A stretch of DNA of 64,000 nt, from the NCBI GenBank assembly GCA_964036045.1, contig OZ038378.1, forward strand, positions 183,582,001 to 183,646,000. Direction: 5' to 3'. A model generated the notes under the pieces. The model saw nothing but the letters and a program-made list of their open reading frames with translations, did not search any database and had not been told where the DNA came from. This DNA is from Eutreptiella sp. 'Long Island Sound 2002'. Lineage: Eukaryota; Protista; Euglenida. Position 1 is the first letter of the stretch; every line of letters starts with the position of its first letter. The position numbers and the translations under genes are program-made. Shown here one piece after another: positions 9,001 through 64,000 of this stretch.

Positions 9001-9080
9001 CCCACTTGTGGGCCACTTCTGATTTTGCCCCCCGCTCTGCAGCGGTGGGGATCCGCGATACGGCAGGGGTGCGGTAGCCA
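1..9080. repeat. 85-bp GC-rich tandem satellite, ~107 monomers, continuing off the left edge
   Basis: Seen directly. Consensus monomer CCCACTTGTGGGCCACTTCTGATTTTGCCCCCCGCTCTGCAGCGGCGGGGATCCCCGATACGGCAGGGGTGAGGTAGCCACTTTG counts to 85 nt and repeats head-to-tail with point variants and occasional short-deletion monomers. Confidence 0.98.
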
Positions 9081-16467: not shown

Positions 16468-16546
16468 GGACTGGCCTTCACACCCCCTTCCAGTGCAGAT
16501 TAGCTATCATCTCAAATATTAGCACACCGCCACCCTTGTCTTACAG

Positions 16547-17232
16547 ATGACTGTGTGCTGCACTTGCATGCTGATGACTATGTTGATGGCCAGCCGGAAT
16601 GGCGAAGCTGCAAGCAGGACTTGGTCGCCTCTGTGCCACCAGAAGTAGCGGATGCCTCTCGCAAGGGTGAGATGGTTGTGCCACCTGCTGCAGCTCCAAT
16701 CCAAGTGCCACTAACAACCGCCTCTCGTGAGATGCCACGTGTGACTTATGTTGTTTGGGCCCGGAAGGTTGGTCCTTACCCCCAGAGGAATCGGGGCTGG
16801 ATTCTTAGCCAGGACTCTGGATTTGTTTGGAGCCGTGCCATGACCCTCTCAGATAAGCGCTTTGGGTCTGTGTCATTGGTCAATCCCAATCATTTCAACT
16901 GCAACGTCAGTTCACCACCAACAGAGGAAGACGGCTGGTTCCACCTTGTCGTGATTTACAGACCATCACCCGAAAAAAGCGAGGTTTATTTCAATGGAAC
17001 CAGGGGCGTGACCACCACTTGCTGGGATGGCCCAAAAAAGAGAGATCCGCCACCTCTGGGGCAGCCACTGTGCATTGGAGGAAATAGAGAAGAACGTGAT
17101 CTGTACAATGCAGGTGTTGCCTTCAGGGAAGTGCGTGTGTATAATCGGGCACTTTCTGAAGCCGAGGTACAGCGACTCTATATGTACTCTGGGGCCAGTC
17201 GCAATGCAGCAGCAGCCCATCCGCGCACTTGA
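16547..17232 (+). CDS. Terminal exon encoding a LamG-like / concanavalin A-like jellyroll domain (Laminin_G_3 type); upstream exons not found
   Basis: Stop-free frame with family hallmarks VLHLHADD, TYVVWAR, GWFHLVVIY, EVYFNG, PLCIGG and EVRVYNRALSEAEVQRLY. Pyrimidine tract plus acceptor CCCTTGTCTTACAG ends at 16546 (phase 1); stop TGA at 17230-17232. Confidence 0.85.
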
Positions 17233-24400: not shown

Positions 24401-27400
24401 CACAGAACACCTGGGGCTTCCAAGCACAATCAGGACATGACGGGCGATACTCAATCTTTAAAACCAGCCACTGCCCCCCCCCCCCCCCCCCCTTTGTGAT
24501 CAGAGATTGCATGTTTCTGGAACAGTTTGAAATGTGGTGTGTTATGCACACCTCAAATCAACCCATCCAATCATCTGGACCAAATGTTGTGGCATTTCTC
24601 CAATTTTCCAAGCGTATGTTCTCTCCACAAGTAGGCCACAATTTAGTGCTCCCTAGCAGCCCCCTCAGCCCCTCCTCCACCGAAACGCCCAGCTCCCTTC
24701 AGTCTTTTTCAGGCATGTTCAAGCACCAGGCTGTCTGAGTCCTTCAAGGTTCAATGGCCTGCTGCTCGCATTTGTGAACACCGGCAGTCGACGGAACACC
24801 ATCCTCTTGTCCCCTGACTCCCTGTTTCTGGTGACAGGAGGGGCGCCAGGTGCGGCCGGCAACCACCCGCTTGTAGTGCCGCGGATGGCGCGGACCTGGA
24901 GGTGGTCACACGGTATGCTGGGCCACACTGTGGCGTGTGCAGCTTGGCGATGCATCCGGGCGGGCAGCTCCTATGTTGGGGTTGGAGGATTGCTCCGTGA
25001 TGTTTTTCAGCGTCCCCCCCCCCCCCCTGTGAGCCCCGCACCCCTGTCAGAACCGCGGGAATTTTAGTTTCCGCAACTTTTGGAACTTTACTGCGGCTCT
25101 CGCAGGGGGGGGGCAGGGGAGGGCAGTAGGGGAGGGCAGTCCTGAGCCGTGGGTCGATGCCCATTTGTCCGAGTGGCACATCTGCTGTTCTTCTGAGATT
25201 TGGTTTCAGCAAGGGCTGCGGTCCACCGATGTTGAAGCGACGACGGGTGGCAGGCAAGGCATGGGGATTGGTGGGTCCTCTTTGGGGATTTGGTTGTGGT
25301 GATCGCCCGAAGTTCTGAGAGCGGTTCTCAACGTGTGTTTGTGTGTGTGTGTGTGTGTGTGTACACACAGAAACACTCACACAGAACACCTGGGGCTTCC
25401 AAGCACAATCAGGACATGACGGGCGATACTCAATCTTTAAAACCAGCCACTGCCCCCCCCCCCCCCCTTTGTGATCAGAGATTGCATGTTTCTGGAACAG
25501 TTTGAAATGTGGTGTGTTATGCACACCTCAAATCAACCCATCCAATCATCTGGACCAAATGTTGTGGCATTTCTCCAATTTTCCAAGCGTATGTTCTCTC
25601 CACAAGTAGGCCACAATTTAGTGCTCCCTAGCAGCCCCCTCAGCCCCTCCTCCACCGAAACGCCCAGCTCCCTTCAGTCTTTTTCAGGCATGTTCAAGCA
25701 CCAGGCTGTCTGAGTCCTTCAAGGTTCAATGGCCTGCTGCTCGCATTTGTGAACACCGGCAGTCGACGGAACACCATCCTCTTGTCCCCTGACTCCCTGT
25801 TTCTGGTGACAGGAGGGGCGCCAGGTGCGGCCGGCAACCACCCGCTTGTAGTGCCGCGGATGGCGCGGACCTGGAGGTGGTCACACGGTACGCTGGGCCA
25901 CACTGTGGCGTGTGCAGCTTGGCGATGCATCCGGGCGGGCAGCTCCTATGTTGGGGTTGGAGGATTGCTCCGTGATGTTTTTCAGCGTCCCCCCCCCCCC
26001 TGTGAGCCCCGCACCCCTGTCAGAACCGCGGGAATTTTAGTTTCCGCAACTTTTGGAACTTTACTGCGGCTCTCGCAGGGGGGGGGCAGGGGAGGGCAGT
26101 CCTGAGCCGTGGGTCGATGCCCATTTGTCCGAGTGGCACATCTGCTGTTCTTCTGAGATTTGGTTTCAGCAAGGGCTGCGGTCCACCGATGTTGAAGCGA
26201 CGACGGGTGGCAGGCAAGGCATGGGGATTGGTGGGTCCTCTTTGGGGATTTGGTTGTGGTGATCGCCCGAAGTTCTGAGAGCGGTTCTCAACGTGTGTTT
26301 GTGTGTGTGTGTGTGTGTGTGTACACACAGAAACACTCACACAGAACACCTGGGGCTTCCAAGCACAATCAGGACATGACGGGCGATACTCAATCTTTAA
26401 AACCAGCCACTGCCCCCCCCCCCCCCCCCCCCTTTGTGATCAGAGATTGCATGTTTCTGGAACAGTTTGAAATGTGGTGTGTTATGCACACCTCAAATCA
26501 ACCCATCCAATCATCTGGACCAAATGTTGTGGCATTTCTCCAATTTTCCAAGCGTATGTTCTCTCCACAAGTAGGCCACAATTTAGTGCTCCCTAGCAGC
26601 CCCCTCAGCCCCTCCTCCACCGAAACGCCCAGCTCCCTTCAGTCTTTTTCAGGCATGTTCAAGCACCAGGCTGTCTGAGTCCTTCAAGGTTCAATGGCCT
26701 GCTGCTCGCATTTGTGAACACCGGCAGTCGACGGAACACCATCCTCTTGTCCCCTGACTCCCTGTTTCTGGTGACAGGAGGGGCGCCAGGTGCGGCCGGC
26801 AACCACCCGCTTGTAGTGCCGCGGATGGCGCGGACCTGGAGGTGGTCACACGGTATGCTGGGCCACACTGTGGCGTGTGCAGCTTGGCGATGCATCCGGG
26901 CGGGCAGCTCCTATGTTGGGGTTGGAGGATTGCTCCGTGATGTTTTTCAGCGTCCCCCCCCCCCCCCTGTGAGCCCCGCACCCCTGTCAGAACCGCGGGA
27001 ATTTTAGTTTCCGCAACTTTTGGAACTTTACTGCGGCTCTCGCAGGGGGGGGGCAGGGGAGGGCAGTAGGGGAGGGCAGTCCTGAGCCGTGGGTCGATGC
27101 CCATTTGTCCGAGTGGCACATCTGCTGTTCTTCTGAGATTTGGTTTCAGCAAGGGCTGCGGTCCACCGATGTTGAAGCGACGACGGGTGGCAGGCAAGGC
27201 ATGGGGATTGGTGGGTCCTCTTTGGGGATTTGGTTGTGGTGATCGCCCGAAGTTCTGAGAGCGGTTCTCAACGTGTGTTTGTGTGTGTGTGTGTGTGTGT
27301 GTACACACAGAAACACTCACACAGAACACCTGGGGCTTCCAAGCACAATCAGGACATGACGGGCGATACTCAATCTTTAAAACCAGCCACTGCCCCCCCC

Positions 27401-28232
27401 CCCCCCCTTTGTGATCAGAGATTGCATGTTTCTGGAACAGTTTGAAATGTGGTGTGTTATGCACACCTCAAATCAACCCATCCAATCATCTGGACCAAAT
27501 GTTGTGGCATTTCTCCAATTTTCCAAGCGTATGTTCTCTCCACAAGTAGGCCACAATTTAGTGCTCCCTAGCAGCCCCCTCAGCCCCTCCTCCACCGAAA
27601 CGCCCAGCTCCCTTCAGTCTTTTTCAGGCATGTTCAAGCACCAGGCTGTCTGAGTCCTTCAAGGTTCAATGGCCTGCTGCTCGCATTTGTGAACACCGGC
27701 AGTCGACGGAACACCATCCTCTTGTCCCCTGACTCCCTGTTTCTGGTGACAGGAGGGGCGCCAGGTGCGGCCGGCAACCACCCGCTTGTAGTGCCGCGGA
27801 TGGCGCGGACCTGGAGGTGGTCACACGGTACGCTGGGCCACACTGTGGCGTGTGCAGCTTGGCGATGCATCCGGGCGGGCAGCTCCTATGTTGGGGTTGG
27901 AGGATTGCTCCGTGATGTTTTTCAGCGTCCCCCCCCCCCCTGTGAGCCCCGCACCCCTGTCAGAACCGCGGGAATTTTAGTTTCCGCAACTTTTGGAACT
28001 TTACTGCGGCTCTCGCAGGGGGGGGGCAGGGGAGGGCAGTCCTGAGCCGTGGGTCGATGCCCATTTGTCCGAGTGGCACATCTGCTGTTCTTCTGAGATT
28101 TGGTTTCAGCAAGGGCTGCGGTCCACCGATGTTGAAGCGACGACGGGTGGCAGGCAAGGCATGGGGATTGGTGGGTCCTCTTTGGGGATTTGGTTGTGGT
28201 GATCGCCCGAAGTTCTGAGAGCGGTTCTCAAC

Positions 28233-28268
<36 letters not shown>

Positions 28269-29331
28269 ACACAGAAACACTCACACAGAAAGGCGCCTAG
28301 TGCAGGCGGGACATGCTACTGTTTTTGTTCTGCTTTGCACCTGACGAGATCTAGTACATCCAGACCAGTCTTTTCTGTGCTCTGTTTGTCGCCGAAGTGT
28401 GTGTGTGTAACCCTTCCATTCCTCAACAGTGCTGGGACTGGGGCAGTACTGCGTCAGGTGCCACAGCACCACTAGGGAGGAGGGAAAATGCCAATGCACA
28501 TTCAAGGACCGTTGTTTGCGGCCAACAATTGTTGAATTACTGCGTGTGTACATAGTTTCTAATGTCGTGTTTTTTTTTTGTAACACGTTTTTCGACGTCC
28601 CAAAATACGTCCCAAAAAAATTGCTTTCCCCCTCTCGGCCTGAGGTGCCTGAGCACTACGCCAAAGGGACGTCAGGTGCCAAGGCACCACGGTAAACGCT
28701 GTTCCTTATTTTATTTTATGCTGTTCCTGCGCTGTTCTGTGGCGGATTGCGGCGGCCCTAGTGGCCCAGGTTGCATACCCCTGCCTTGCCGGTGGGCCAG
28801 CATGGACGCGCCTCAGATGAGATAGACTGAATGCCTTCAGACAGCGTGTTGTTGTCGCCGCGAGGGGGCGGCCAGCAACCACCCGCTTGTAGTGCGGCGG
28901 ATGGCGCGGACCTGGAGGTGGTCACACGGTACACTGAGCCACACTTGGCGTGTGCAGCTTGGCGATGCATCCGGGCGGGCAGCTCCTATGTTGGGGTTGG
29001 AGGATTGCTCCGTGATGTTTTTCAGCGTCCCCCCCCCCCTGTGAGCCCCGCACCCTTGTCAGAACCGCGGGAATTTTAGTTTCCGCAACTTTTGGAACTT
29101 TACTGCGGCTCTCGCAGGGGGGGGGCAGGGGAGGGCAGTCCTGAGCCGTGGGTCGATGCCCATTTGTCCGAGTGGCACATCTGCTGTTCTTCTGAGATTT
29201 GGTTTCAGCAAGGGCTGCGGTCCACCGATGTTGAAGCGACGACGGGTGGCAGGCAAGGCATGGGGATTGGTGGGTCCTCTTTGGGGATTTGGTTGTGGTG
29301 ATCGCCCGAAGTTCTGAGAGCGGTTCTCAAC

Positions 29332-29367
<36 letters not shown>

Positions 29368-30026
29368 ACACAGAAACACTCACACAGAAAGGCGCCTAGT
29401 GCAGGCGGGACATGCTACTGTTTTTGTTCTGCTTTGCACCTGACGAGATCTAGTACATCCAGACCAGTCTTTTCTGTGCTCTGTTTGTCGCCGAAGTGTG
29501 TGTGTGTAACCCTTCCATTCCTCAACAGTGCTGGGACTGGGGCAGTACTGCGTCAGGTGCCACAGCACCACTAGGGAGGAGGGAAAATGCCAATGCACAT
29601 TCAAGGACCGTTGTTTGCGGCCAACAATTGTTGAATTACTGCATGTGTACATAGTTTCTAATGTCGTGTTTTTTTTTTGTAACACGTTTTTCGACGTCCC
29701 AAAATACGTCCCAAAAAATTTGCTTTCCCCCTCTCGGCCTGAGGTGCCTGAGCACTACGCCAAAGGGACGTCAGGTGCCAAGGCACCACGTTAAATGCCG
29801 TTCCTTATTTTATTTTATGTTGTTCCTATGTTGTTCTGTGGCGGATTGCGGCGGCCAAGCTAGTGCAGCCGCAGCATGCCGCAGCACCTGTTTTTTGGAG
29901 CTGCACATGGGGGTTTTGAAGCATGCCGCAGCATGCCGCAGCGAGCCAAAATTTTCACGTGGCGGACTTTTTTTTTCATACCACGTCGAAACTCTGAACC
30001 CTTTGTTGCACAGGTGTCTCGGAACT

Positions 30027-30095: not shown

Positions 30096-30155
30096 TACTT
30101 TACTGCCTGCAGTTCCTCTCTATTCTGATCTTCGCTTTTTTGGTGTTGTTTTGAC

Positions 30156-30971
30156 ATGTCAAGTCCTGAAGGATACTGTCTGTCTGCTCCTACTGTGTTC
30201 GCACGGGAGACCTTCTGCCTGCCCCATGTCTCCCCAGTTTGTCTTTATTTGTGTTGTCATGAGTCAGTCATCTGCACCAACAACATGCAGTCAAGAGCCA
30301 ACCACACCACTTTCCCAATCAGATGGGATCAAGCGGAACAAGCGTGTTTTCAAAAGCAGACAGGTGGCCCAGCTGATCCTTTGGGTGCGCTTAATGACAT
30401 TAAGAGCGCACAGGCTGAGGTCACTCGTGGGAAGTTTCCCCCTGGCGTGCAGAAATTGCTCAGTGCATGTCCAGCTCCACAGGCTGCTGCTCAGAGCAAG
30501 GTTTTGCAACAGGCAGCCACAGTGATGTCCAGCAAGGTGGATAATCTGCATGCAAAGACTATCAAAGGGCAAGGCAAGACTCAGGCGGCAGTTAATTGTT
30601 TCAACCCAGAACTGCTGCAGACCAAAGAAATGATGTCTTATTCTGAGTTGTGTAAGCACATACCCAATGTGCCACAATCTGAGTGGGTCCGGTATATTGC
30701 TCTGCCAGCCCCGAGCCCTCTGCCGGATTCTACTGCAGCCAGAGTGGCATGGTGGCATGCCAAAAAAGACGATTTTCCTGTGTTGAGTAGCATTGCTGTT
30801 TTCTTTGTCCGACGACCACGCTCTGCTTGCCATGTCGAGCGAACGTTCAGTTTGATGGGCCACATCCAGACAAAGGACCGTTTGCATATGGGCAACGACA
30901 CTTTGCGCCATTTGGCTATGATGTATGTCAACAAACCCACTACAGACGATCCGGATGGTGAAAGTGATTAA
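30156..30971 (+). CDS. 271-aa ORF ending in an hAT transposase C-terminal dimerization domain (truncated transposase)
   Basis: WWHAKKDDFPVLSSIAVFFVRRPRSACHVERTFSLMGHIQTKDRLHM matches the hAT WW...FP.L..IA...P.S...ER.FS...R consensus; ATG to TAA without interruption, lying between the TIRs. Confidence 0.85.
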   Translation: MSSPEGYCLSAPTVFARETFCLPHVSPVCLYLCCHESVICTNNMQSRANHTTFPIRWDQAEQACFQKQTGGPADPLGALNDIKSAQAEVTRGKFPPGVQKLLSACPAPQAAAQSKVLQQAATVMSSKVDNLHAKTIKGQGKTQAAVNCFNPELLQTKEMMSYSELCKHIPNVPQSEWVRYIALPAPSPLPDSTAARVAWWHAKKDDFPVLSSIAVFFVRRPRSACHVERTFSLMGHIQTKDRLHMGNDTLRHLAMMYVNKPTTDDPDGESD

Positions 30972-50368: not shown

Positions 50369-51700
50369 GTGTCCCCTAGCCCCAGAGTGAAACATCGGCA
50401 ACAACAAAAGAATGGCACTATAATCTGGGCCCAAGGCATGGCGCGCAGCTCACATGCTGTGTTGCTTAGCTTCAGCCATCCACCGTGGATGGTTCACAGC
50501 ACCGGGAATATTAATGCTCCATTTTCTGGGCCCTTATGGCTCTTGTTCAGGGAATGTCGGGCCATGAACCCTCAGTGTTGCAAATGAAGTGCAAAACAAA
50601 ATCTCTTTGGGCCTTCGTGGAAATTTGTGACCTGCACAATTACACATGGTCATTTTTCAACGTCTCTCAACAAGTTTCCATGATCCTACCAAACGTCATC
50701 CTTAACCATTTGTCCAGAGCTTGCACAACAGGAACAGGGGAGCCAATTCCGAAGGAGAATGGAATGAAATTGGCTAGAGAGGCCGGCACAGATGATGTCC
50801 AAGAATTGCGGTAAGGGCTGGGGGTTTGTTGAGATTAAGAGGGCACACCGTGCGCTGTGCACGCAAATTCAGCTGCGGACCCCTTTTCATGCTTTGGCTG
50901 ACGCTGGTTGACATTGCGGACGAAGGAATAAATTCCAAGGCCAACCACATTGACGTAGCCTCGTTCTTTGCATCCAAGATTTTCATTTTTCAGCTTTGGC
51001 CACTGCATGTGGCGTTTTGAGTGGTTGATTTGGGGGTGGTTCTTGTGTAATATCCCAGATAACGGGGGCTTTGCGAGATCACAACCTTCTCACTGCGACG
51101 CACTCCAGCTCACTTCACTACAACGCACCACACCGGTTTCAGTTCAAAACACGAGGCCCTCGCACTGCTGTACACCCATGAAAGAGTTATTGAAGAGGGT
51201 GCATACTGCAATGAGAGGTAGATTGCAGGCAGTGGTGCAGGTGTCAAGATTCAGTGTTCTGGAGGATTCGGAGGTAGATTGCAGGCAGTGGTGCAGGTGT
51301 CAAGATTCAGTGTTCTGGAGGATTCGTTCAGAGTTAAGGCTGCTGAGGACAAGTGAGAGTCTGGTGACAATCATCGCCGGACTGTTGACAATCATGAAAA
51401 AAAAAAACCCTCAACAACGACCCTTACCCAACGTCACCCACCTTCGCGAAGCCTGGGACATCCTAAATGGCCCTCATCAGAGGGTATTTCCGCGCAGTAT
51501 GTGCACAGATATGGCACAGTGCGCATTCCAGACGTGCACTGCAGTGAGAGGAATGTGATGTGCGCAGGCCTGCTCTTACTCCATCGCACTCCTCTCGCTG
51601 GCATATCCGCCTCACTGCATCACCTCTTATTGCATGCAGTCGTTTGCTTCACTCACTCTGGCTGTCGTGGTCCTTGTCAGCTGATAGCCCCTCTTTTCAG

Positions 51701-52272
51701 GTTTGGCAGAATCCCATGTCTCCGCCGAAAAAACACTGATGTTGGGCAGTGGGTCGGGCTTCCCGGTGGCACATGCGCGGATGCTACGGCAGGGGACAGG
51801 GGCGCAAGTGACTGTGGTCGACGCCAGTGATACCAATCTGGCGTACGCACAACGCCAGGCCCGCGCCGTGGGCATTGCGGACGACCGCCTGCGCTTCATC
51901 TGGGCGGATCCCGATGCACTACTTCGCGATTTGCCAGACACTGACCCGAATGTCGGCCGATTCGACGCCGTGGAATGCAGCGGGTTGCTACGGCACACTG
52001 CAGCGCCGGACGCACTTTTGCAGGGGGTCAGCCGCCTGCTGCGCCCGGGAGGGGTCGCGGTTCTCCAGTTGCCCTCCCTCGCGGCCGAAGCAGAGCTGGG
52101 GAGTGTCCGGCAGTTCGTGCAGGATCTTTCTGCGGGGCTCCCCAAGCCATTTATTGGGGCGGATGGGGAGTTTTTGCGCATGCCCTCCGTTCCGGAGGTT
52201 CGCATCGCGCGCCGTGCGCTGCTGGCCGCGTCAAGCGCCACCCCTGCGCGCCAGGCAGCGCTGCAGCGAAAG
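51701..52272 (+). CDS. Methyltransferase gene, exon n-1: class I SAM-dependent methyltransferase core
   Basis: Acceptor CTCTTTTCAG|51701 (phase 1, matching the previous donor); donor AAG|GTATGT at 52273 (phase 0). Motif I LMLGSGSG, VTVVDAS..NLAYAQ, and FDAVECSGLLRH...LLRPGG. Confidence 0.9.
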
Positions 52273-52470
52273 GTATGTGTGGCGAAGCATCCGCCTAGCT
52301 TGCGATTCTGTGTTGATTCTGTGGATTGTGTCTAGATGTTGAACATTCACGCACTTTTGCTTGTGACTTGTTTATTTCTATGTTTCTATGTTATTTTGCG
52401 CGCGTTGATGCCCGTGAAGGAGAAGTTGGGCCAAGGGGACAAGCAAGGCCACATGTGCCCTCGCTCAAGC

Positions 52471-53905: not shown

Positions 53906-56900
53906 CAAGATTGGCAACCACTGCGTTGGGGACCGGCTTCAGTCAGGCACACTGCACGAGGGTAGCCAGTAAGTCCAAAGTGAGCACGCGGACGGCCATT
54001 GAGAGACTGTTCGGATGTTTGGTTGTGTGCTGCTTCCGGGTCACTAGCCCGATGGTTTGTGTCACACATGTCATGCCTTGTGTGTGAAGTGTATCCACAG
54101 TGTTATGTAGCATTGGTTTGCTTTGTGGTTCGCTTTTTTCTTCTTTTCTTCGTCCTGTCTTATTGCTGTGTGCTTATTGGTGTGCGGAAGGCTGTCTTTG
54201 TACTTTTTGCTGGACATCAATATGGTCCCTTTGCTGGCTTTCATGGCAATGGCTCTTCTGTTGGTGCGCAAGGTGCATGGCATTCAAGTCCATTTTCACA
54301 CACCTGTATATTGATGGGCAAGCTCATCATAATTTCATGCATTTGCCTTTTCACACGTTTCGCAAGTGGAAAATGTCTCGATGTATCCCTTGCATGCGCA
54401 TGTGTCAGCAATGTGTAAAGGGATGTGGGGCACAATGCCGCAATTTTGCGAATTTGGGCATTTCAGCCTCCTGGGTTTTCAGATGCACGCTGGAAACGTG
54501 CACCTAAGGCATGTGCACGGTGTGGACTGGTTCCCTCTCCTGGTGAACATCCACGGGGGCACTGTCTCTGTTGCTCTTTGAAACCCACATGACATATACA
54601 CATGTTGGGATTGCTGGATGTTTGACCTGGAGATAATCGACGCACTCCGAACTTCATATGTATCGATGTATCCGTACACTCCTATCTAACAGTCCACTTT
54701 CCAAATAATTTTCAGTTATATACGGCCATATATGACATGGGTGGCCAAAATCGACGGGGCAACGCAATCCCCTCCGTGGGAGGGGATTCTTTATCTTGGC
54801 CCACAAGTACAATATGGAATGCTGACTCAATTTCAATTTTGCTCATCAATCAAACCCACTTTCGGCGTAATGGTCCAGCCAGCCCTCTTACAAATGGCTG
54901 GGGTACAAAGGGCATTGCTGTCGGCATGGACACAATCATGCACGTTTAGACTAACCCAATCAAGTGGTATTACAACACATCATGCAATCAAGGCTGACAG
55001 TATCATTTCCGTTTGTGCAGTGCCCGATTTTCTGTTTGCTCTGTGATGTTTGCTGCTGTGCCCAGTTGTGTGGATTTGCGACTGCGGGATGCTTGTCGTC
55101 TGCATTTGTGTGCGGTCCTGTCCGTAATCATTTGCTTGGATAGCGGAAGCAGCAGCACGTGTCATGGCGACGCTGCATCAGGAGCAGGCATGAAGGAGGT
55201 GGCGGTATTGGTGGAAATCGTCCAGTGCTTTTTCAATATGTTTGCATTTATCTGATCAGGCTACGGCAACACGACGTGGTGACCGATCCATGACACTGTA
55301 AACCGCGGTTCCATCGTCGGACGTCTGGGGTGGGGGTAGGCGGGTGCGTATTTAGTGACAACCTGTTGAAAGGCCGATTTCAGCAACAACAAAATAGGAG
55401 AGGAATTTGCAGACGATCGCCATTTTTTCGCCATTTCTTCTTCATATCTACTCCCCCTTGATTTCTTGTTGCGACTTTGCAATTATATGGTGCTTACCAT
55501 TTTGCGCCGAACAGTCAGTTGCAAGCTTTATCACCCTCTTTTACTCAGGCCAACAACACCCTCTTAACAATTCCAATATTCAGCAAGGCATTCCACAATG
55601 GGTACACCAATACCAGTAGAGGGAACACTACAGAGGTGTTGAACAAGATGAGGAACATCACAGAAGATGACAAGTTTCTGTCACAGATAAGGTTTCCTTT
55701 GATGCATCCATGGCAAAAGGCCTCAAGTATTTCATCCATGTGATCACATTGAATTTGTAGGGGGGGTGAGGAACTGCATGGGGGCAACACATGTTTTACC
55801 TGCTTGGGGGGGGGGGGGATGCTGCTCAAAGAGCAATTGCTTGCAAACCTGGGTCTGATAAGTTATGATTTTGAGCGATTGTATGTATGGCTCACCACGT
55901 TCCTCCTTGAGGCAACATTTTTGGAATGTGGTACAGTTTGGAACATTTGTTTTCATATGATGGAGCTTTGGGCACTGCTTGAAGAAACAAGCTTTGTGTC
56001 AGCTCCAAACATGGTAGATTTTCGAGAATGCGCAGTGATTGGGATTGATGCTATCAGCACATCTACAGTATGAATCCTAAAGATTTGCTAAAATATTTGA
56101 TTCCCGGCACAAGGTGTTGTTGTCCGCCAAAAAAAAGAACGTAGAAAAAAACTAGTTTTTGGCGTCATGCCCTAAGCAAAAATGGGTTCCGCAAAAAAGA
56201 TCGCAAAAATAAATTGTTTTTTGCCCCTGCCCCTCTTTTTCTCTTTTTGCAAGAGGACGGAGGAGTTAGAACCCCTTGGGCTCTGGGCCACCTCGGGGTT
56301 CTAACCAAGGGTCTTGTCCCCACGGCGGGTTCGCTCACACCTTGCATAATCACACCTTGTTGCCTGCATTATAAGCGGGCAAACTCACCAACAACTGCCA
56401 CTCGGCGAGTTCTCTAGCTGACTGTCAGTTTCCCATGGTATTAACACTAGGGCAAACACTAGGGGTGTTGAAAGTAACAGAGGCTCTGGGGGAAAGTTTT
56501 CCCCTGCCTGTGTGGCCTTGCTTTGCTTTCCTCTGCTTATAGGGCCCATGTACAGCCTTCGCGCTTATTTTTCTGTCATTCCCCATGAGGCAGTTGTGGA
56601 TTGGATGCAGTTGCAATGTCAATGCTGCGTGAGCTATTCCCGAAAGTGTTTGGGGCTATTTTGGAATCACATATCTTATCTTTGGGCAGCAGCGCAAAAT
56701 CGTGCAGCTAGTATTGGCTCTTGCAGTAGCAACAAAATGAATCAACGCCAATCCCCAAAAGGCAGAAAAAAAAACGCAAAAAGAAAGATAATTTTTGGTG
56801 TAACGCCCTGCACAAAAATGGGTTCCGCAAAAAAAATCGCAAAAATAAAATATTTCTTGTCCATTTGGATGTCATCGCAAAAATTTTGCTTATTATTCAT

Positions 56901-58444
56901 TCAAAAACACCCAACACAAAAATTAGGATTCCACGAATCTTCAGGATTCGTACGGTAACCACTGTACAACACAACCATGGTTGGAGCATTGCTCAATGGT
57001 ATGTCACACTATCACAACTCACCCATTTTGGGAGCACTGCGTAGTGGGATGCAATGCTATGAGCACAACACGCCTACGGTGGAAGCACTGTCCAACGCGA
57101 TGGACACCTATCTTGGGCCACACGCTCTTGGAGCTGTTGCATGGTGTAGTCATAGCAACTGAATGTTCTTTTGAGAGATTTGGTGCACTCCAAATTTTCG
57201 AGTGCATGCTGGAAGGATCTTCTCCCCATTGTGCTGCAGGTTCATCTATCCCCACCTTTGTAGGCAATCACGCGTGCAAATCACACCACACCAGATAGAC
57301 ACCCCGTTTCCCACTGCACCAAGGCACCTATTGGTGCCTTGGTCTTGGTTCTTGCTTCTCTTGGAGCCCATTTGGGGCAGTGCTCCCCTTTGTGCTCCAT
57401 CGATGTATACTCTGGCCACAATATTTCCCTTCTATCGGGGCGGAGGGTTAGACTTGGACTAGCCAAGCCCCCCTAGCTTAGCTGCCATTGAGGCGCTCAA
57501 GTGATGTGGTGAAAATCAAGTATGAGAGCTGAACAGTGCTGCAATTGTCCCATGGAAAGCACCATCCCGGACATTGCACATAGTAAGTCCGTGCTACACC
57601 TCACAAACACGAACATCAGACGGAAACTGGGAACCATGCTTCTCCAACAGCTTATACCCGCAAATGGTTGGGTATTTCAAATTATAGGAAAACCAGTTCA
57701 TTGCTGGACCCAATTAGCGAAGGTGTATCAGTATCGTTCATAAGGACACTACAAAACTTTGTACAACACTTATTGTCGCTAGAGGCAGCAGGTAATCCCT
57801 GACACACAATCAATTGACATATTTGGAGATGTTGGTTGTGCTTTTGCAGGCCTGAGCTCTTCTTTTCCCTCTTTTGTGGATTCTGTCAAAATGGCCATGA
57901 GCGGTTTGGACGCGTTGGCACTTAAAATGGTGGTGGTCCAGCCTACTGAAGAGGAAGAGACCACAGGCAGTGATGACGACAGTACACCTATGAGCGAACC
58001 AAAACCAACAAAACAGAGGAAGCACTCAGCTGAGATTGTAGAGGAACCTCCCACCGCACCGACCAACATAGAAAGACACCCACCAAGAAACCAAAAGGTG
58101 AAGCCCTCTGTAGGGCTTCACCTGTAGGGTGCGGCTGCCTCCGATCTTTCAAAGGGTGGTTCCAAAAAGTAATGATGTATATATTGGCATATATGTACGC
58201 TATGTTTCTTGTCTTTGTCATGTGTCCTCTCGCCTATCATGTTTTTGTGTCTGACCAAACAGTTAGTGCACGCCGTCCTGTGTCCGTAGATATCGGATTG
58301 TGTATCCAGTTACTCAGCCGTAATCTTGCAGCACACAGCACTAACTTACATTTGTCTAAACACACCTATTACCACCGTGCTTTTGTCATTGATGTTGTTG
58401 GAGATTGGGACGTAGATATACACCCTTCAAAGTGAAGGGGGGTG

Positions 58445-58631
58445 GACAGCAAAAACAGTCAAACGACCCCCGCAACAACCAGCACAACCCCAATACGCCA
58501 ACTACTGGGCGCCGCTAATGCGCAAATGGCACATCCTGCCACATCCAGCACAGCCCCAGCACACCAACCACTGGGCTCCACGAACGCGGAAACGACACCA
58601 GCAGGAGCACCGGCCGCAGCGGCCGACAGCA
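58445..58631. repeat. Short C/A-rich interspersed-repeat-like segment with an internal ~62-bp diverged duplication
   Basis: CCAGCACAACCCCAATACGCCAACTACTGGGC versus CCAGCACAGCCCCAGCACACCAACCACTGGGC; bounded by the direct repeat GACAGCA (58445, 58625). Confidence 0.45.
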
Positions 58632-58941
58632 CTGTGTGCCTACTCCCCTTTTGGCTGGGCAATGGTAGCTTCTGTGGCTTAAGGTGCGTCCTCATACATG
58701 ATGCAGAATGTGTGGGCAATTTGGATATTATTGTTCCAAAGAAGAAAACTGTAATCATGCGAACATACCAGGGATTCTTACATAAACGAGACCCCTTTCA
58801 TGTTAAACTGATATATCATCCCTTTTTGGCCTCTTTTCTCAATGGTCTCAATGGTCTCAATGGTCACAGCTGCAGGGCGTGTAAACCCCACTCACTGTAC
58901 TTCATATCAGGTGTTGTGATGTCTTGAGGTGACTCTATGCA

Positions 58942-59078
58942 ATGGACTCCAGCATCTTTGAGGCCCTGGAATACCGTGGGACCAAGGCCCGCACAATGCG
59001 CAGACCTGCGGACGTTGCAGCTCAGGCTCCCCTGAAAAAGCGGAAGACGGCGACTGAGACCACTGATGCTCATGGCAG
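58942..59078 (+). CDS. Tandem-HNH protein gene, exon 1 (NLS-like PLKKRK)
   Basis: ATG at 58942; donor GGCAG|GTACCT at 59079 (phase 2), joining exon 2 in frame. This may not be the true first exon. Confidence 0.65.
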
Positions 59079-59682
59079 GTACCTGGCCTTTGTAGTGGTT
59101 CGGGCCCACCACAAACAGCATCTCCAGTGGTCTGACTGGAAGGTACCCATACCACGGCGGTAGTATTGCGGGGGGTGGTCCGACGGAGGGGCGGGGGGGG
59201 CGAGGGTGGCTGGAATTGCGCCTTCCATGATTCGGGCCATCTGTCTTCAGTTGTTGTGCAAGAGTATTGGGCGTGGGGGTTGGGTTTCTGCAACTGCTGT
59301 CTGCTGGGGCCCACGTGTTCTGCTGGTGGTCCCTCGCGGGTCCAGCCTCATCGAAGTGGTTCCGGAACACCGAGGTTTTCTGGACCTCTGAATACACGTG
59401 CCTAAGGGGGACAAGGGGGAGAGCGTTTTTTGCGGCAACTTTTGCCCTACTCTTTGGCAACGGACCACACAAAAAAACGTCCAGGGGCCTAGGGATCCTC
59501 CTGAGCCCCCCAAACAATCCCCTCCGGCAGGCCGGGGCGGCAGGAGGCCGCAGATTCTTTGGGCCGTTCCCGGCCCTGCAGCCTTCTGCTGCTGCTGCTG
59601 TTGTTTGCTTCCTGATGTATGGGGGGAGGGGTGGAGGAATCTCTCTTTTTCCCTAGGGCCTCCCCAATACTCCCCTGTGCAG

Positions 59683-60229
59683 TGTCCACGTGGAAATCCT
59701 GTGCAAGGACTGCCGGAGGGGTGACTCCTCCTTCCGCCAGCAAAGCATCGCCGCCTTCTTGGGCAAACACAGTCCGGCCGGGGCCCCCGGTACAGCCTCA
59801 TCAACCCCCAGCTCTGGCCCCACCGGCCACGGCGCAGCGACTGCTCCGGACGACCCCCGTGTGCCCGTACCCCCGCAAGCCGCGCCACATGCGGAGGAAG
59901 GCGGCGGGGCCTCGGGCCTGGGCTCCACTGCAACCTCCAGCGGAGTAGATGAGGAGCGCGTGGAGCTGGAGCTGGAGGCTGCAGTGGCCCGGTCGGAGCA
60001 GGACTGGGCCGACGACCGGCCCTTGCCCGATGCAGATGCGGAGACCGCAGGGGCCGATCCGAGCGACGCCCCGTCGCATGCACCTTCCGAGCCGCTGCTA
60101 CTGTGCAGCCGCTGCCGGCGGCCGATGCGCGAAAAGGGGTCAGGCGCCGGGGCGGTCCGGTCGAAAGGGTGCCCGTTCCTCACGAGGCTGCAGAGCTACA
60201 AGCGTGTGGCACAAGAGAAGAGGGTTCAG
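59683..60229 (+). CDS. Tandem-HNH protein gene, exon 2 (CxxC motifs, PIP-box-like QQSIAAFL, UIM-like LEAAVARSEQD, start of domain 1)
   Basis: Acceptor TCCCCTGTGCAG|59683 (phase 2); donor CAG|GTATGC at 60230 (phase 0); open GC-rich frame ending SYKRVAQEKRVQ. Confidence 0.82.
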
Positions 60230-61028
60230 GTATGCCAGCGTAAGCCCCTCGGGTGGTGTAGGGAGGGGTCTCGTGGCTGAGTGTGGGACGGCAGTACCTG
60301 TGTTTACATTTGCATTCGTTGGACAACAAAAGCATCATTTTGGAACTTCTTGTCGGACGGGCTGCGTCCAGTCCACGCAGGACGAAATTGCTACCCGATG
60401 GACCTGCCAGGCATTGTGCCAATGTTGCTTGAGGACGCAAGGCTTCTGCATAATGGGCGACGTCTGCCAGCGACGAACACAGTAATTGCTGCCGGTTTTT
60501 TCTTCTCTTGGTGCAATTGAGCGGCATGAAGATCGCGAACGTGAGCATCCCCCCCCCCCCCCCCGCGGCGCACATGTGACCAGAAGCACCAGATGACCAA
60601 GGGGGCCCAGGTGCTCACGGCCAAGCAGCAACATCTGCAACAAGCGTGCGAGGGGGCACATGCTGCATTCCGAACTAAGCATATCGTGGAATGCAAACAA
60701 TACGTGTTGTTGAGTCGACGACAGACATTGCAAATGCATGCAACGAAATTCCAAATGCGCCACCATTAATTGAGGAAGTGTCGAGTCGTTACCGCAACGA
60801 CTCGCGGAGCGTGGTGCTTCTCTGGCGGGAGACGATCACCAGTGGTACGCGTGGACTGTCTTCAAATGATGGGGCATCTGTACACGGATTTTGGTGTACC
60901 TATTGAATTGGTCTATTCTGTTGAGATGCGCACGTGGTCTTCTGGTGTTGCCGGTCCTTGACTCTTTTAGGGGGGGGCGGGTCATCTCTCACTGATCTGT
61001 CCTGTCCGGCCATACTCTTGGCTTGCAG

Positions 61029-61193
61029 TTTGCCTTATCGGACTCTGAGGCCATCGCATTGATGCGCCGCCATTGCCTCTTTTGTGGAAGGGAGCCAGAT
61101 CCAGAACACGGCCATGGCATAACACGGCTCGGGCGCAGGAAGCCACACGACCCAAGGGGCATGGGAACGTTCAGTGTGGACAACACTGCAGCG
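61029..61193 (+). CDS. Tandem-HNH protein gene, exon 3 (domain 1 core)
   Basis: Acceptor CTTGGCTTGCAG|61029; donor GCG|GTATGG at 61194 (both phase 0). Translation FALSDSEAIALMRRHCLFCG...GITR...DNTAA. Confidence 0.85.
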
Positions 61194-61684
61194 GTATGGC
61201 CCGAACATTGCGTGCGGGGTTGAGGGTTTGGGTCGGCATCGCAACGGAGACACATTCGGATCGGGCCAAGGAGTGGGCTTTGGTACAGGACCCCCCCGCG
61301 CGCGCCAGACGTGTGGGAGTCGGGGTTGGAAGGGTTCTAGAAATCAATCCGCAGTTTGGAATAGAGCATCGGATGCAGGGGATGGCATCAAAATGAAAAC
61401 GTGTGATTGGGTATCGCGACCATTGCAAACTCCGGCCAACGGCAGCGGAATTGTGCTGAAAGCTCTCTGGAATCCGTACCCAAATCCGTCTCTACCATTT
61501 CATCTGTGCACAGTGTTGCATGCGCGCTGCTCCCGTGCGCCCCGCCCCCGGATCCCCGGAGTTCCAGATTGGCCTATGATCGCCAATGTTTGAGGGCGAA
61601 TCCCTACTTCCAGGCCTCTATCCTGCAGGAATTGTTGGTTGTCCAGGGATGCTTTGTCCAACAGGCTGCTCTGTGCTACCTCAG

Positions 61685-61768
61685 GCCTGCAGTCGCTGCA
61701 ATCTGATGAAAGGGTACCACGGCATGGATGCGTTTGTGGAGATTTGCATGCATATTGCCAACCACAAG
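61685..61768 (+). CDS. Tandem-HNH protein gene, exon 4 (end of domain 1)
   Basis: Acceptor GCTACCTCAG|61685; donor AAG|GTCTGC at 61769 (both phase 0). ACSRCNLMKGYHGMDAFVEICMHIANHK supplies the CxxCNxMK motif. Confidence 0.85.
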
Positions 61769-62415
61769 GTCTGCCTTCCTTCACACTCAACCCCCTGACC
61801 AGCAACCTAAAGTGAAGCTGCATTCAGACGTAAGGACGGAGACGTTCGGAGCCACCCAAGTGAGGCGCTTACTACCTGATGACAGCGACCTTGGAAAGAT
61901 TTTCATTCTCAATTCCTCTTGTGGGGCTGTTAAGTGCTGCTTTCTTCGTACAGCTGTACAATGTGAAGTAGACAGCTGCTCCTGGGCTGATAGACGGACT
62001 TCTTTGAAATTTCTTCCATGCATGTCACCCGTCGTTGGCCATGTTTGGACCTTGCCGCACAAATTGCAGCCCAAAGGTGGTTTTCCTTTGGCTCTTCGTG
62101 CTGAACGTCTCAATATCAGCGATCGATGTCATTGAACATCTCAATCTCAGCAGAGGGTGCATGTTTTTGCCCAAGCCACTTCTTTGGGCTGGAGGGCTGC
62201 CGGTACGCCAACCTCCACAAGGGCCTGCACTGTCGAAGTTGGGAGGCGGGAGTTGGGATGGCTCCCGAACAGGGAACCAGCGATCAAGGCGCCCTATCCC
62301 CCACGTTTCTGTTTCCTCGCCGTTGTACACACTGCAAAGCCAGGCCGTAGTCCATCATTTTTCATAGGGTCGCTCTGTGTGGTACTCCTGCATCCGCCCT
62401 TTGCATGATTTGCAG

Positions 62416-62543
62416 GGCTTGGGAACGTTCGGCTCCTTCCCCGACCGCTTTGTGAACAACACAAGTAAGCGATGTCGCAGTGCGTACCTCACGGACAGCA
62501 AGACGCATGCGTTGAGCAATGCCCAATTTGATGAAATTGTCCG
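62416..62543 (+). CDS. Tandem-HNH protein gene, exon 5 (linker and start of domain 2)
   Basis: Acceptor GATTTGCAG|62416 (phase 0); donor CG|GTATCC at 62544 (phase 2). Translation GLGTFGSFPDRF...HALSNAQFDEIV. Confidence 0.75.
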
Positions 62544-63181
62544 GTATCCCGGGAAGGCACAGGGTGGCATCTGTTGGAGTGTGCGTATGATGTACCTGCA
62601 CCTGTTGGCGTGACTCTCACTGTGCCTCTGCTTCTGTATGCTCCTCGCAGTGCACGTGCTTCTACCCGCACATGTGCCTGTGCCTGTGCATGCACATGTG
62701 CCTGTGCCTGTGCATGTACCCGTCCCACGGTTGTGCATCTGCATCTGCCTGTGCATGTGCCATTTTCCCTCCGTTGTCCGCCGCACCCGTCACCGCAGTT
62801 TCCCACATTTCCTGTTGCACTTTGCCTGATTTTGCCTCACACCCCCGGTTTCCATCTCTCGCCATCCCTTCCTCCTTCGCTCCACGTCTCCGCCCTGAGC
62901 AGTTGCTGAAGCGCAGGATGTGCCTATGGTAGACGCTTCATGAACCAGAGCTCCGGAACATTGCAGGCAGACACATTAAGAAAATAAAGCTAAAAAGTTT
63001 CGTGGGGGGCCGTGATGATTTTCCTGCTGTAGTCAATACACAACGTCAAGGTCCCGCAGGGGTGCCCGACTGGAGCCCCCGGACGTGTCGTGATGATCTT
63101 CGAAGTGGGTCATTTCATGTCGGGGGCGTTTTGCCGGCCTGGGGTACGCCCAGCATTGAAGTCCTTTCTGTTTGTGTGCAG

Positions 63182-63359
63182 GAAGTCCTGTTACTACTGT
63201 GGGAAGCAGAGCAACCCGCCGCATCACTACAATGGCCTCGATCGGCTTGACAGCACCATTCGAGTGTACACGACGGCCACGTGCGTCTCGTGCTGTGGCA
63301 CGTGCAACATGTGTAAGTACCGGTTCACTGAGGAGCAGTTCTTAGAACAGTGTATCAAG
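63182..63359 (+). CDS. Tandem-HNH protein gene, exon 6 (domain 2, HNH/His-Me finger)
   Basis: Acceptor TTTGTGTGCAG|63182 (phase 2). CYYCG...NGLDRLDS...VY...CVSCCGTCNMCK...FLEQCIK is the repeat signature of giant-virus-type HNH endonucleases. Probable donor AAG|GTTTGT at 63360; otherwise the frame stops at 63383. Confidence 0.88.
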
Positions 63360-63957
63360 GTTTGTCTGCGTGACTATAGATAGTGGCAAGGGTGCCACTG
63401 AGTTAGAACTGCAGCTTAGGATGTGTTAAATGGCTTTCATGGCAGAGGCTGGGCCGAAGGCTTAGTCTTCACCATGAGGCTGAGTTCTGGAAGTCGAATG
63501 TGGGCCCAGATTCGGTGAACAATTCCTTCGGGCTACAGATTCCCATTTGTTTGTCGAATTCGCACGAAGCCAAATCTTTTGTAATTCGGCTCAACCCTGA
63601 GGCCCGATTCAACATCCCTGGAGACACCGCGAACTTGGCACAGATGCAGTGTTTGGTACTGTCGAACGCAGCCAAGTGATGAAGACATGCAGTTTTATCC
63701 AAAGGTCATTTGGGACTCATCTTTTGCACCTTCTACCAAGCTTCCTCGGTGGGCCTCACCCAGTCTGTGACTTCCCCCTGTGGTTCGGGGTTGATTGGCT
63801 TTGGTGTTGTTGCAATGGGGCACGCTTTGTTTGACGTTGTGTGTGCCATGTTCTGCCAGTGGAACCATTATCGAGTCAGGTCCACAGCATCATCCGACAT
63901 GTGCACGTGAATGCACAACCCACACATGCTGAGGCACCGGTCCTCACTGTCCACCAG

Positions 63958-64000
63958 GTGGCCTCGTACCAGACGGCAAATAATTCCTTGCGCCAACCCG
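63958..64000 (+). CDS. Tandem-HNH protein gene, probable exon 7 (runs off the window)
   Basis: Acceptor CTCACTGTCCACCAG|63958 (phase 0); VASYQTANNSLRQP continues CIK| as the expected terminal helix. Confidence 0.5.
   Translation, partial: MASYQTANNSLRQP

Follow-up and report, generated by a model that had tools for sequence, protein, structure and literature searches.

The gene and its transcripts

The last 5 kb of the window, that is, of the entire 64,000-nt stretch of Eutreptiella DNA that was analysed, contains a forward-strand gene (all coordinates below refer to this strand) in which six exons, joined through phase-matched GT-AG introns of 491-799 nt (introns 1 to 5), yield 413 stop-free codons; open reading frames and junctions in the window reproduce the structure proposed in an earlier, sequence-only reading. 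Exon 1 (58942..59078) encodes amino acids 1-46, including a KKRK basic cluster (59035-59046, aa 32-35) that resembles a nuclear localisation signal and is embedded in a K-x-R-Q-A-x-E...D-G segment of the protein family described below. Exon 2 (59683..60229) carries a CxxC knuckle, a PIP-box-like motif, a low-complexity spacer, a second CxxC knuckle and the first helix of domain 1; the CxxC and the degenerate active site of this domain are encoded in exon 3 (61029..61193) and its CxxCN..K helix in exon 4 (61685..61768). Exon 5 (62416..62543) encodes a highly conserved linker followed by the start of domain 2, and exon 6 (63182..63359) encodes domain 2 with an intact PacI-type site. Exon 7, from 63958 onwards, contributes another 14 codons up to the end of the window (64000), the stop codon lying beyond it.

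Three of the introns are excised in RNA. In contigs from two metatranscriptome studies, introns 3, 5 and 6 correspond to exact skips of 491, 638 and 598 nt, with zero mismatching letters; both studies document the splicing of intron 5, and one that of introns 3 and 6. The depths of these contigs are low (2.7-5.1), and contig depth is not taken as copy number. Because an RNA joint from 63357 to 63956 skips the 598 nt of intron 6, exon 7, previously considered only likely, is in use. Introns 1, 2 and 4, outside RNA coverage, are defined by phase and by collinearity with homologues across the junctions. Two X2 contigs fall within intron 4 and derive either from unspliced RNA or from DNA present in the library; runs X6 and X7 gave no contig on the gene, a negative result that does not prove absence. 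At the 5' end, the RNA contig that covers exon 1 has a loose, T-rich end of 8 letters at 58910, next to an AG (58909-58910) within a candidate acceptor site (58909..58911); these 8 letters together with the genomic G are identical to the final 9 letters of the Euglena spliced-leader end as printed (PMC4778363). The 5' UTR (58911-58941) contains two upstream ATGs: one opens a uORF of 2 codons, and the other, at 58937, is out of frame. DNA contigs of 1,965 and 3,912 nt span the gene with no differences. Thus, this is a spliced, transcribed and intact gene of the euglenid type, and the earlier view that the host has kept it intact holds.

Tandem domains and N-terminal motifs

A Pfam scan of the six exon-bearing frames gave no significant match. 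The product contains a genuine internal repeat: the local alignment score of the two modules is 98, compared with a mean of 26 and a maximum of 47 for shuffled sequences, and none of 1000 shuffles reaches it. The repeat had been described as two copies of one module, but the copies are not equivalent. Only module 1 has a clear 'YKR.A..K' start, and it reads GITR, with Phe at the position of the active-site Tyr of module 2, which holds the active-site D-R; the degeneracy of module 1 extends across the family. Judged from sequence, both modules are His-Me fingers of the PacI type (D-R...Y...CxxCN). In domain 2, D374-R375 (63240-63245) and Y383 (63267-63269) align with the D-R and the Tyr of PacI, followed by C392-x2-C395-N396, and H369, also encoded in exon 6, is invariant. 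PacI-type fingers are recognised by a D-R that ends strand 1, a loop Tyr and no catalytic His, all of which hold for domain 2, whereas domain 1 departs from this pattern at T260 (61122-61124), where Thr replaces Asp, and at F276, which replaces Tyr.

The same asymmetry is found throughout the family. The D, R and Y of domain 2 are present in 47 of 47 members and the N in 46, and G317, F323, R332, Y335 and K340 in the linker and the start of domain 2 are invariant (47/47); in domain 1, the Asp is replaced by Thr, Ser or Asn in all 47. In viral-type proteins, the Asp is found in 19 of 20 first domains and in 20 of 20 second domains. Mean identity within the family is 60% for domain 2 and 46% for domain 1, the respective values for the viral set being 36% and 37%. 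Residual activity of domain 1 is possible because its Arg, Asn and Lys are retained in 47/47 members and its Tyr in 22/47.

Searches of PDB point to PacI as the best match by single-domain profile (E 7e-9, with D-R, Y and CxxCN aligned), by Foldseek (E 1.3e-3) and by VIA (Z 6.9, rmsd 3.4, 95 aligned); with domain 2 alone, VIA ranks Gme HNH first (Z 6.4) and PacI second (Z 5.3), and searches with exon 6 alone or with the whole-protein profile returned nothing meaningful. PacI residues were assigned from the profile alignment and from PMC5714182, PMC3384342 and PMC11529989; the Asp-Tyr spacing in domain 2 is one residue longer than in PacI. In the model of a homologue, P0022 (mean pLDDT 81.7), the zinc site CxxC...CxxCN, with conserved Cys and Asn, lies in a beta-beta-alpha fold preceded by a helical segment (helices 108-123 and 131-139), and residues 98-198 align with PacI residues 16-126 (VIA). 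Exon 6 also matches PHROG 1035 (E 2e-7).

The N-terminal region has features that the sequence-only reading had missed, as it had the degeneracy of module 1. CxxC knuckles 1 (59702..59713, aa 53-56) and 2 (60104-60115, aa 187-190) probably form a single zinc site split by a spacer that varies from 26 to 134 aa across the family; 37 of 47 non-redundant members have both, and the remaining 10 lack a second N-terminal CxxC, several of these sequences being N-terminally incomplete. Between the knuckles lies a PIP-box-like motif, QQSIAAFL (59738..59761, aa 65-72), which fits the relaxed rather than the strict form of the consensus (taken from PMC5481773) because its last position is Leu. The relaxed motif occurs in 27 of 37 members (0.03 expected), is missing in the other 10, and occurs in 0/20 viral-type proteins; the strict form, Q-x-x-[VILM]-x-x-[FY]-[FY], is present in 21 of 47 family N-termini and, in a later set, in 16 of 29 members (0.02 expected) compared with 1 of 72 non-family tandem proteins. 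In the cryptophyte-like group, the motif often ends in F-C. NZF-like and UBM-like motifs were found in 7 and 4, respectively, of 94 family sequences, with Pfam RanBP2-type fingers above the cut-off in P0028 and P0093 and UBM matches below it; the window protein itself has neither motif.

An old protist family and its viral relatives

The original proposal had this host capturing the gene; instead, sequence comparison places the gene as one member of an old family on a long stem that spans at least seven eukaryotic lineages. Among 58 matches in a profile search, 56 were judged, by reading the sequences, to be family members. Named members of the family come from prasinophytes, chlorarachniophytes, Paulinella, a dinoflagellate, a haptophyte, ochrophytes and a cryptophyte, with Pyramimonas, Cymbomonas, Lotharella, Paulinella (2 species), Gymnodinium, Emiliania, Triparma, Tetraparma, Aureoumbra and Guillardia as named hosts. 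In a tree of 47 family and 20 viral-type rows, the family is monophyletic (support 100/99) on a stem of 1.82 changes per site, and the same support was obtained in a 62-row tree. No described eukaryotic family of this build was found in the literature, in agreement with the initial impression. Endosymbiotic transfer from a Pyramimonas-like plastid donor was considered as a possible source: one intron position appears to be common to the two, but no tree places them together with support (43/88 in the single-domain tree, no resolution in the 47+20-row and 62-row trees).

The dN/dS comparison proposed at the outset gave ratios of 0.06-0.39 for eight orthologue pairs, and a ninth pair had a dN of 0; thus, the orthologues evolve under purifying selection. 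Their neighbors are ordinary cellular genes (ARM repeat, AAA ATPase, tRNA synthetase, PITH, trehalose synthase, TIM), with no capsid or other viral hallmark gene among 26 ORFs scanned at 5 loci. Pfam detected no helicase in 66 family or related proteins, and a search through 7,994 candidates (892-2,545 aa) revealed no fused versions of greater length, which is weak evidence. The closest sister group consists of 5 proteins (97/87 with the family) that lack the PIP motif, and searches for this group in viral contigs found none. In GTDB genomes, the family patterns gave 12 matches, one of which is a distant single-domain relative; the patterns are family-specific, so this result applies to close members only, which were not seen.

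The assignment of the modules to the tandem His-Me type of giant viruses is borne out by the PacI profile match and by structure searches. All named proteins among the best 36 BFVD matches (5 are unnamed) are from nucleocytoviruses, the best ones being tandem giant-virus proteins aligned over 208-221 columns with rmsd 2.5-3.3; ESM Atlas structure matches are nucleocytovirus clusters (TM 0.34-0.52), and the feature matches there, all below 0.9, serve only as leads. The viral relatives adjoin the major capsid gene at 13 of 18 loci, and one giant-virus bin with a tandem relative also encodes PCNA. A tblastn search of phages gave 39 records; the 25 listed are all below 35% and mostly single-domain.

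A viral source, also part of the first interpretation, fares less clearly. In the best single-domain tree, family domain 1 falls within viral domain 1 (92/89) and family domain 2 among viral second domains (91/78 with one viral row); diversity is far deeper on the viral side (62-row tree), and the viral proteins retain the two-active-site state that PacI and the single domains of phages also have. AU tests gave p 0.135 for independent duplication in eukaryotes, 0.272 for viral domain 1 as a clade and 0.081 for all viral domains as a clade. The virus-to-host direction is favored by the maximum-likelihood trees, none of the tests being significant (p 0.08-0.27).

Proposed function, alternatives and known systems

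With moderate confidence, we interpret the gene as an expressed host member of a widespread protist family, with a core likely derived from a giant virus, and its product as a predicted PCNA-docked nickase with a single active site that acts in replication or repair. The KKRK cluster would direct nuclear import and the PIP-like motif would bind PCNA; in some lineages, the NZF- or UBM-like module may read ubiquitin. The two domains could be packed against each other like those of the viral tandem proteins, a single chain clasping duplex DNA in the manner of a pseudo-dimer, with domain 2 cutting one strand by PacI chemistry, in which Tyr, possibly the nucleophile, replaces the usual His. Since domain 2 alone would cut and domain 1 only bind, a double-strand cutter would have become a nickase, and by analogy with ZRANB3, the substrate may be a stalled fork or a repair intermediate. 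A fuller scenario, which we regard as tentative, is a single ancient capture of a selfish giant-virus capsid-gene nuclease, rebuilt as an unrecognised nuclear DNA-repair factor by silencing of one site and addition of PCNA- and ubiquitin-reading motifs; the resulting tyrosine-based nickase would have converged on ZRANB3 and been kept in euglenids, green algae, rhizarians, dinoflagellates, haptophytes, ochrophytes and cryptophytes.

Other origins have to be weighed against this account. The window is repeat-rich, with a hAT dimerisation fragment ~28 kb upstream of the gene and short repeats of very high copy number at 56.1-56.9 kb and 58.44-58.63 kb, but the notion that the gene is a selfish element or a recent endogenous giant virus remnant is very improbable and already largely refuted: the gene is interrupted by six introns and its 5' end is leader-like, the two DNA contigs cross it without differences, and the window contains no second copy, no viral hallmark gene among 23 ORFs scanned and, between 54 and 64 kb, no inverted repeats of any length. 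Core identity is 43-59% to orthologues from distant eukaryotes versus 20-32% to viral-type proteins. A protein with the same function could also have a non-viral origin: giant viruses may have obtained their tandem nucleases from, or in parallel with, an ancient gene of eukaryotes or of some other mobile element. The non-significant AU tests, the sister group with no known viral context and a spread over many eukaryotic supergroups compatible with great age would fit this history, which the nesting of both family domains among their viral counterparts, the far deeper viral diversity and the two-active-site state retained by the viral proteins nevertheless make unlikely.

With respect to function, the named hosts are algae and related protists, all from groups that giant viruses are known to infect, and the protein might be a domesticated antiviral nuclease, a homing-type enzyme of giant-virus capsid genes kept to cut incoming giant-virus DNA and docked through the PIP-like motif on viral or host PCNA at viral replication sites. 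Besides host range, the capsid-adjacent location of the viral relatives, the PCNA gene in the giant-virus bin and the speculation in PMC5714182 that viral PacI homologues are restriction-like agree with such a role; yet slow, purifying evolution, the lack of observed expansions or fusions (a weak point) and the loss of one active site are a better fit to housekeeping than to an arms race, and the ubiquitin-reader motifs present in part of the family indicate a link to host replication stress, so we assign the antiviral role a low probability. We consider it similarly doubtful that the His-Me scaffold persists as a silent, or nearly silent, PCNA-linked DNA-binding adaptor, comparable to the Smad MH1 domain, an inactivated His-Me finger (PMC5714182). 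The family-wide loss of Asp from domain 1 and the insertion before Tyr in domain 2 would suit an adaptor, but a pure binder needs none of the PacI-type catalytic positions of domain 2, all of which are (nearly) invariant across kingdoms.

Should the account of a PCNA-docked nickase of giant-virus descent be correct, the family would add a case of giant-virus domestication that spans several supergroups; to our knowledge, few cases are well documented in which giant-virus genes became lasting core eukaryotic functions. The route would consist of loss of an active site, gain of a clamp-binding motif and gain of ubiquitin-reader motifs in separate lineages, leading to a likely genome-maintenance nuclease with PacI-type tyrosine chemistry in major phytoplankton groups. 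A compact enzyme with one chain and one active site would be easily tested and potentially useful as a nickase.

Among known systems, one of the closest is the restriction endonuclease PacI, which shares the D-R where a catalytic His would otherwise stand, the loop Tyr, the CxxC...CxxCN zinc site and the fold. PacI is a homodimer of a 142-aa single-domain protein, whereas the family protein carries both domains in one chain, the first of them degenerate, and has one more residue before the Tyr, the split CxxC pair and the PIP-like motif. His-Me finger group 20 of Jablonska et al. 2017 (PMC5714182) comprises, in the table, 78 giant-virus, 4 bacterial and 6 eukaryotic sequences; the accompanying text on this group names only PacI and giant-virus members, leaving the six eukaryotic sequences unnamed. 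The 'divergent HNH endonucleases' of Nucleocytoviricota (Klosneuvirus, Tupanvirus, chlorovirus N584R, Medusavirus, Pandoravirus), often encoded beside the capsid gene, share the two-domain core, the linker and, in the models, the predicted packing at 20-32% identity; they differ in their N-termini, lack the PIP motif (0/20), mostly keep the Asp in both domains and are encoded by intronless genes, unlike the window gene with its six introns. The nuclease of KolobokP transposons is likewise a mobile-element His-Me enzyme in eukaryotic nuclear DNA, but it is I-PpoI-like, with a catalytic His, and resides in transposons with terminal repeats (PMC9587614), in contrast to the PacI-like, intron-rich window gene, for which no transposase partner was seen. 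ZRANB3 combines a PIP box, an NZF finger and an HNH endonuclease and is recruited by PCNA to stalled forks (PMC5481773). The family resembles it in joining a PCNA motif to a His-Me nuclease, with an NZF finger in some members, and differs in that no SNF2 ATPase or APIM was seen and that the nuclease is tandem and of the PacI type, with Tyr rather than His; the resemblance is one of convergence, an analogy rather than homology.

Gene structure, transcript and surroundings

The gene at window positions 58942..64000 on the forward strand was initially read as six phase-matched exons with a likely seventh, encoding two copies of one module. The exon chain read from the sequence (58942-59078, 59683-60229, 61029-61193, 61685-61768, 62416-62543 and 63182-63359, all +) joins into 413 stop-free codons through GT-AG introns with pyrimidine-rich acceptors; exon 7 starts at 63958 (+), as defined by an RNA joint across intron 6, and adds 14 codons up to the window end. 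The RNA evidence consists of short contigs from two metatranscriptome runs of different studies, which show zero mismatching letters and skip exactly introns 3 (491 nt), 5 (638 nt; seen in both runs) and 6 (598 nt). Both the six-exon chain and the seventh exon are thus borne out; of the junctions that were to be checked by RNA-seq, those of introns 3, 5 and 6 are directly confirmed, whereas introns 1, 2 and 4, outside the RNA cover, are supported by phase and collinearity with homologues. The two module copies hold up as well: the internal repeat of the two halves scores 98, a value reached by 0 of 1000 shuffles (mean 26, maximum 47).

In one RNA contig (depth 2.5), 8 non-genomic T-rich letters precede position 58910 ahead of exon 1; joined to the genomic G, they match the final 9 letters of the conserved Euglena spliced-leader end given in PMC4778363. 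The spliced-leader-like joint in this contig puts the transcript 5' end 31 nt upstream of the ATG and points to a host that is probably a euglenid. The 5' UTR (58911-58941) contains two upstream ATGs, one of which opens an out-of-frame uORF overlapping exon 1, and which may dampen translation.

Contigs of 1,965 and 3,912 nt, from DNA runs that may derive from the source sample, span the gene with zero differences, and the flanking repeats are represented by thousands of fragments in the same runs. Very high-copy short repeats, SINE- or MITE-like, lie just upstream of the gene (58442-58629, 56100-56240 and 56750-56900); the repeat at 58.4-58.6 kb reaches a summed depth of up to ~1e6 in the DNA runs and is present in RNA contigs too. 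The window also contains satellite arrays with unit lengths of 85 and 31 nt (5-9080, 9088-15828) and a tandem repeat of a ~960-nt unit marked by GT runs (~21,400-29,400). A scan of 23 ORFs in the 16-57 kb interval detected no viral hallmark gene; the only matches were a concanavalin-A-like (lectin-like) domain (16504-17229), a hAT transposase dimerisation fragment (30129-30968) and a SAM methyltransferase exon (51688-52332).

A eukaryotic family of predicted tandem nucleases

With exon 6 alone as the query, 15 of 16 candidates were found, at 61-81% identity. A profile search yielded 58 proteins from 7,986 candidates, 56 of them assigned to the family by reading the sequences and 2 viral-type; when all 1.84 billion representatives were scanned with HMMER, 190 proteins reached E <= 1e-30, with family members on top of the list and tandem viral-type proteins after them. 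Named sources include the green algae and chlorarachniophyte Pyramimonas parkeae, Cymbomonas tetramitiformis and Lotharella oceanica, as well as Paulinella chromatophora, P. micropora, Gymnodinium smaydae, Emiliania huxleyi, Triparma, Tetraparma, Aureoumbra lagunensis and Guillardia theta. One protein of the cryptophyte-like P0051 cluster (P0198) is annotated as coming from a Promethearchaeia (Asgard) MAG, a label that likely reflects bin contamination.

In the tree of 67 two-domain cores (reduced from 79 by dropping those >90% identical), 47 family rows lie on one side with a support of 100/99, and the stem leading to them measures 1.82 changes per site. Within the family, subgroups track host lineages where names are known, and the window protein is an ordinary end branch (0.47), with 43-59% identity to family members versus 20-32% to the 20 viral-type rows. 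The sequence-only reading had proposed capture by the host; the gene is indeed an intact, spliced host gene, but it belongs to a wide eukaryotic family and is not a capture private to this host. Genomic orthologues adjoin ordinary cellular genes (26 ORFs scanned at 5 loci), and some have introns at positions other than those of the window gene. The dN/dS check was run on 9 pairs of orthologous loci, which are not independent of one another and do not include the window gene: over the core, 8 pairs gave values of 0.06-0.39, and the remaining pair had a dN of 0.

Intron 4 (61769-62415), in phase 0, seems to coincide in position with an intron of the Pyramimonas parkeae cluster, as deduced from two ORF fragments (P0013 and P0020) rather than from DNA. 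The euglenid plastid came from Pyramimonadales; the trees do not join the window gene and Pyramimonas with support. In a cryptophyte-like orthologue (loci L164:1-300 and L165:4830-5150), the exon that starts domain 2 occurs three times in tandem, once with a stop codon.

Nuclease domains and N-terminal motifs

In a search of PDB sequences with a single-domain profile, PacI ranked first (E 7e-9), and the alignment pairs its D-R, Tyr and CxxCN with D374-R375, Y383 and C392-C395-N396 of domain 2, with one extra residue preceding the Tyr in the family. According to PMC5714182, PacI belongs to group 20 of the His-Me fingers, mostly giant-virus proteins, in which a Tyr, possibly the nucleophile, replaces the catalytic His, and the table for this group counts 6 eukaryotic sequences without names. 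Structure comparisons used an AlphaFold model of the homologue P0022 (mean pLDDT 81.7, pTM 0.77), for which PacI was the best match (Foldseek E 1.3e-3; VIA Z 6.9, a middling value, with rmsd 3.4 over 95 residues); for domain 2 alone, Gme HNH (VIA Z 6.4) ranked ahead of PacI, the second match (Z 5.3). In a comparison with predicted viral structures, all named entries among the first 36 are nucleocytovirus proteins, and the top ones span both domains (208-221 columns, rmsd 2.5-3.3), in agreement with the earlier assignment of the tandem modules to the giant-virus type. A major capsid gene adjoins the viral-type tandem nuclease in 13 of the 18 loci scanned (L001, L003, L004, L038-L041, L043, L044, L046, L049, L081 and L126), a count based on 42 of the 64 neighbouring ORFs. 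VLTF3 is often close to these capsid-adjacent PacI-type genes.

The two domains of the family differ in their active sites. All 47 members retain D, R, Y and an upstream His in domain 2, and 46 retain the Asn, the exception being an ORF read through an intron. In domain 1, the Asp is replaced by Thr, Ser or Asn in 47 of 47 members and the Tyr by Phe in 25, whereas viral-type domain 1 retains the Asp in 19 of 20 proteins. Conservation within the family is 60% for domain 2 versus 46% for domain 1; the viral set shows no such asymmetry (36% and 37%).

The N-terminus of the family consists of a basic cluster, a CxxC, a PIP-like (putatively PCNA-binding) motif and, after a variable low-complexity spacer, another CxxC. 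The PIP-like motif, Q-x-x-hydrophobic-x-x-aromatic-aromatic (or L/M), mostly follows the first CxxC by 12-13 residues; among the 37 members with both CxxC, its relaxed form is found in 27 (0.03 expected from shuffles) and Q-x-x-hydrophobic in 36, compared with 0 of 20 viral-type proteins for the relaxed form. The strict consensus, taken from PMC5481773, is matched by 16 of 29 proteins first met after the motif had been noticed (0.02 expected; the set includes one mis-picked row and two duplicates of earlier sequences) and by 1 of 72 non-family tandem proteins. The window copy, QQSIAAFL, has Leu in the last place. Of 94 family sequences, 7 contain NZF-like fingers and 4 contain UBM-like motifs, at differing positions, and neither is present in the window protein; Pfam scores the NZF-like finger above the cut-off in two proteins, whereas its UBM hits stay below it.

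The supposition that no eukaryotic family with this architecture had been described agrees with searches of the open literature, which turned up neither a description of the family nor a paper on six member accession numbers; likewise, the accessible portions of PMC5714182, PMC3384342, PMC11529989, PMC4778363, PMC5481773, PMC12724721 and PMC9587614 do not describe it. Members could already stand in large tables of virus-eukaryote gene-transfer surveys. The nuclease type is already known; what appears to be new is its eukaryotic form, which is domesticated, half-inactivated and equipped with a PIP-like motif.

Origin and proposed function

Single-domain trees place family domain 1 within the viral domain 1 sequences (92/89) and family domain 2 within those of viral domain 2, and therefore the tandem probably came to the family ready-made. 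A sister group of five proteins (P0099, P0102, P0103, P0111 and P0112; clade 100/96, 97/87 with the family) ties the family to viral-type proteins in the tree. All five lack the PIP motif; P0099 has both active sites intact, and the other four lost the domain 1 Asp, not all in the same way. These proteins, which were not found in two viral-contig scans, are candidates for the donor lineage.

Capture of a viral gene, as originally suggested, is favoured by the nesting in the best single-domain trees, but the direction is not firm: the AU test does not reject both family domains as one clade (p 0.135), viral domain 1 as a clade (p 0.272) or all viral domains as a clade (p 0.081). On balance, we regard a viral or viral-like mobile origin of the family as rather probable, and a non-viral origin as unlikely. 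That the window gene is a selfish or recent viral insert is highly improbable.

With respect to function, the most likely reading is a nuclear, PCNA-docked one-strand cutter for replication or repair, the steps past the sequence features being those that we infer. The protein most likely enters the nucleus and would dock on PCNA via the PIP-like motif, assisted in some lineages by ubiquitin readers; the two fingers would grip DNA as a one-chain pseudo-dimer, with domain 2 cutting one strand and domain 1 merely binding. A selfish double-strand cutter would in this way have become a controlled nickase acting on replication or repair intermediates. An antiviral enzyme that cuts giant-virus DNA seems unlikely; a non-cutting adaptor, suggested by the altered domain 1, is similarly unlikely given the catalytic residues kept in domain 2. 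The replication or repair nickase has a known analogue in ZRANB3, which, according to PMC5481773, combines PIP, NZF and HNH but differs in having an SNF2 motor and a His-type nuclease.
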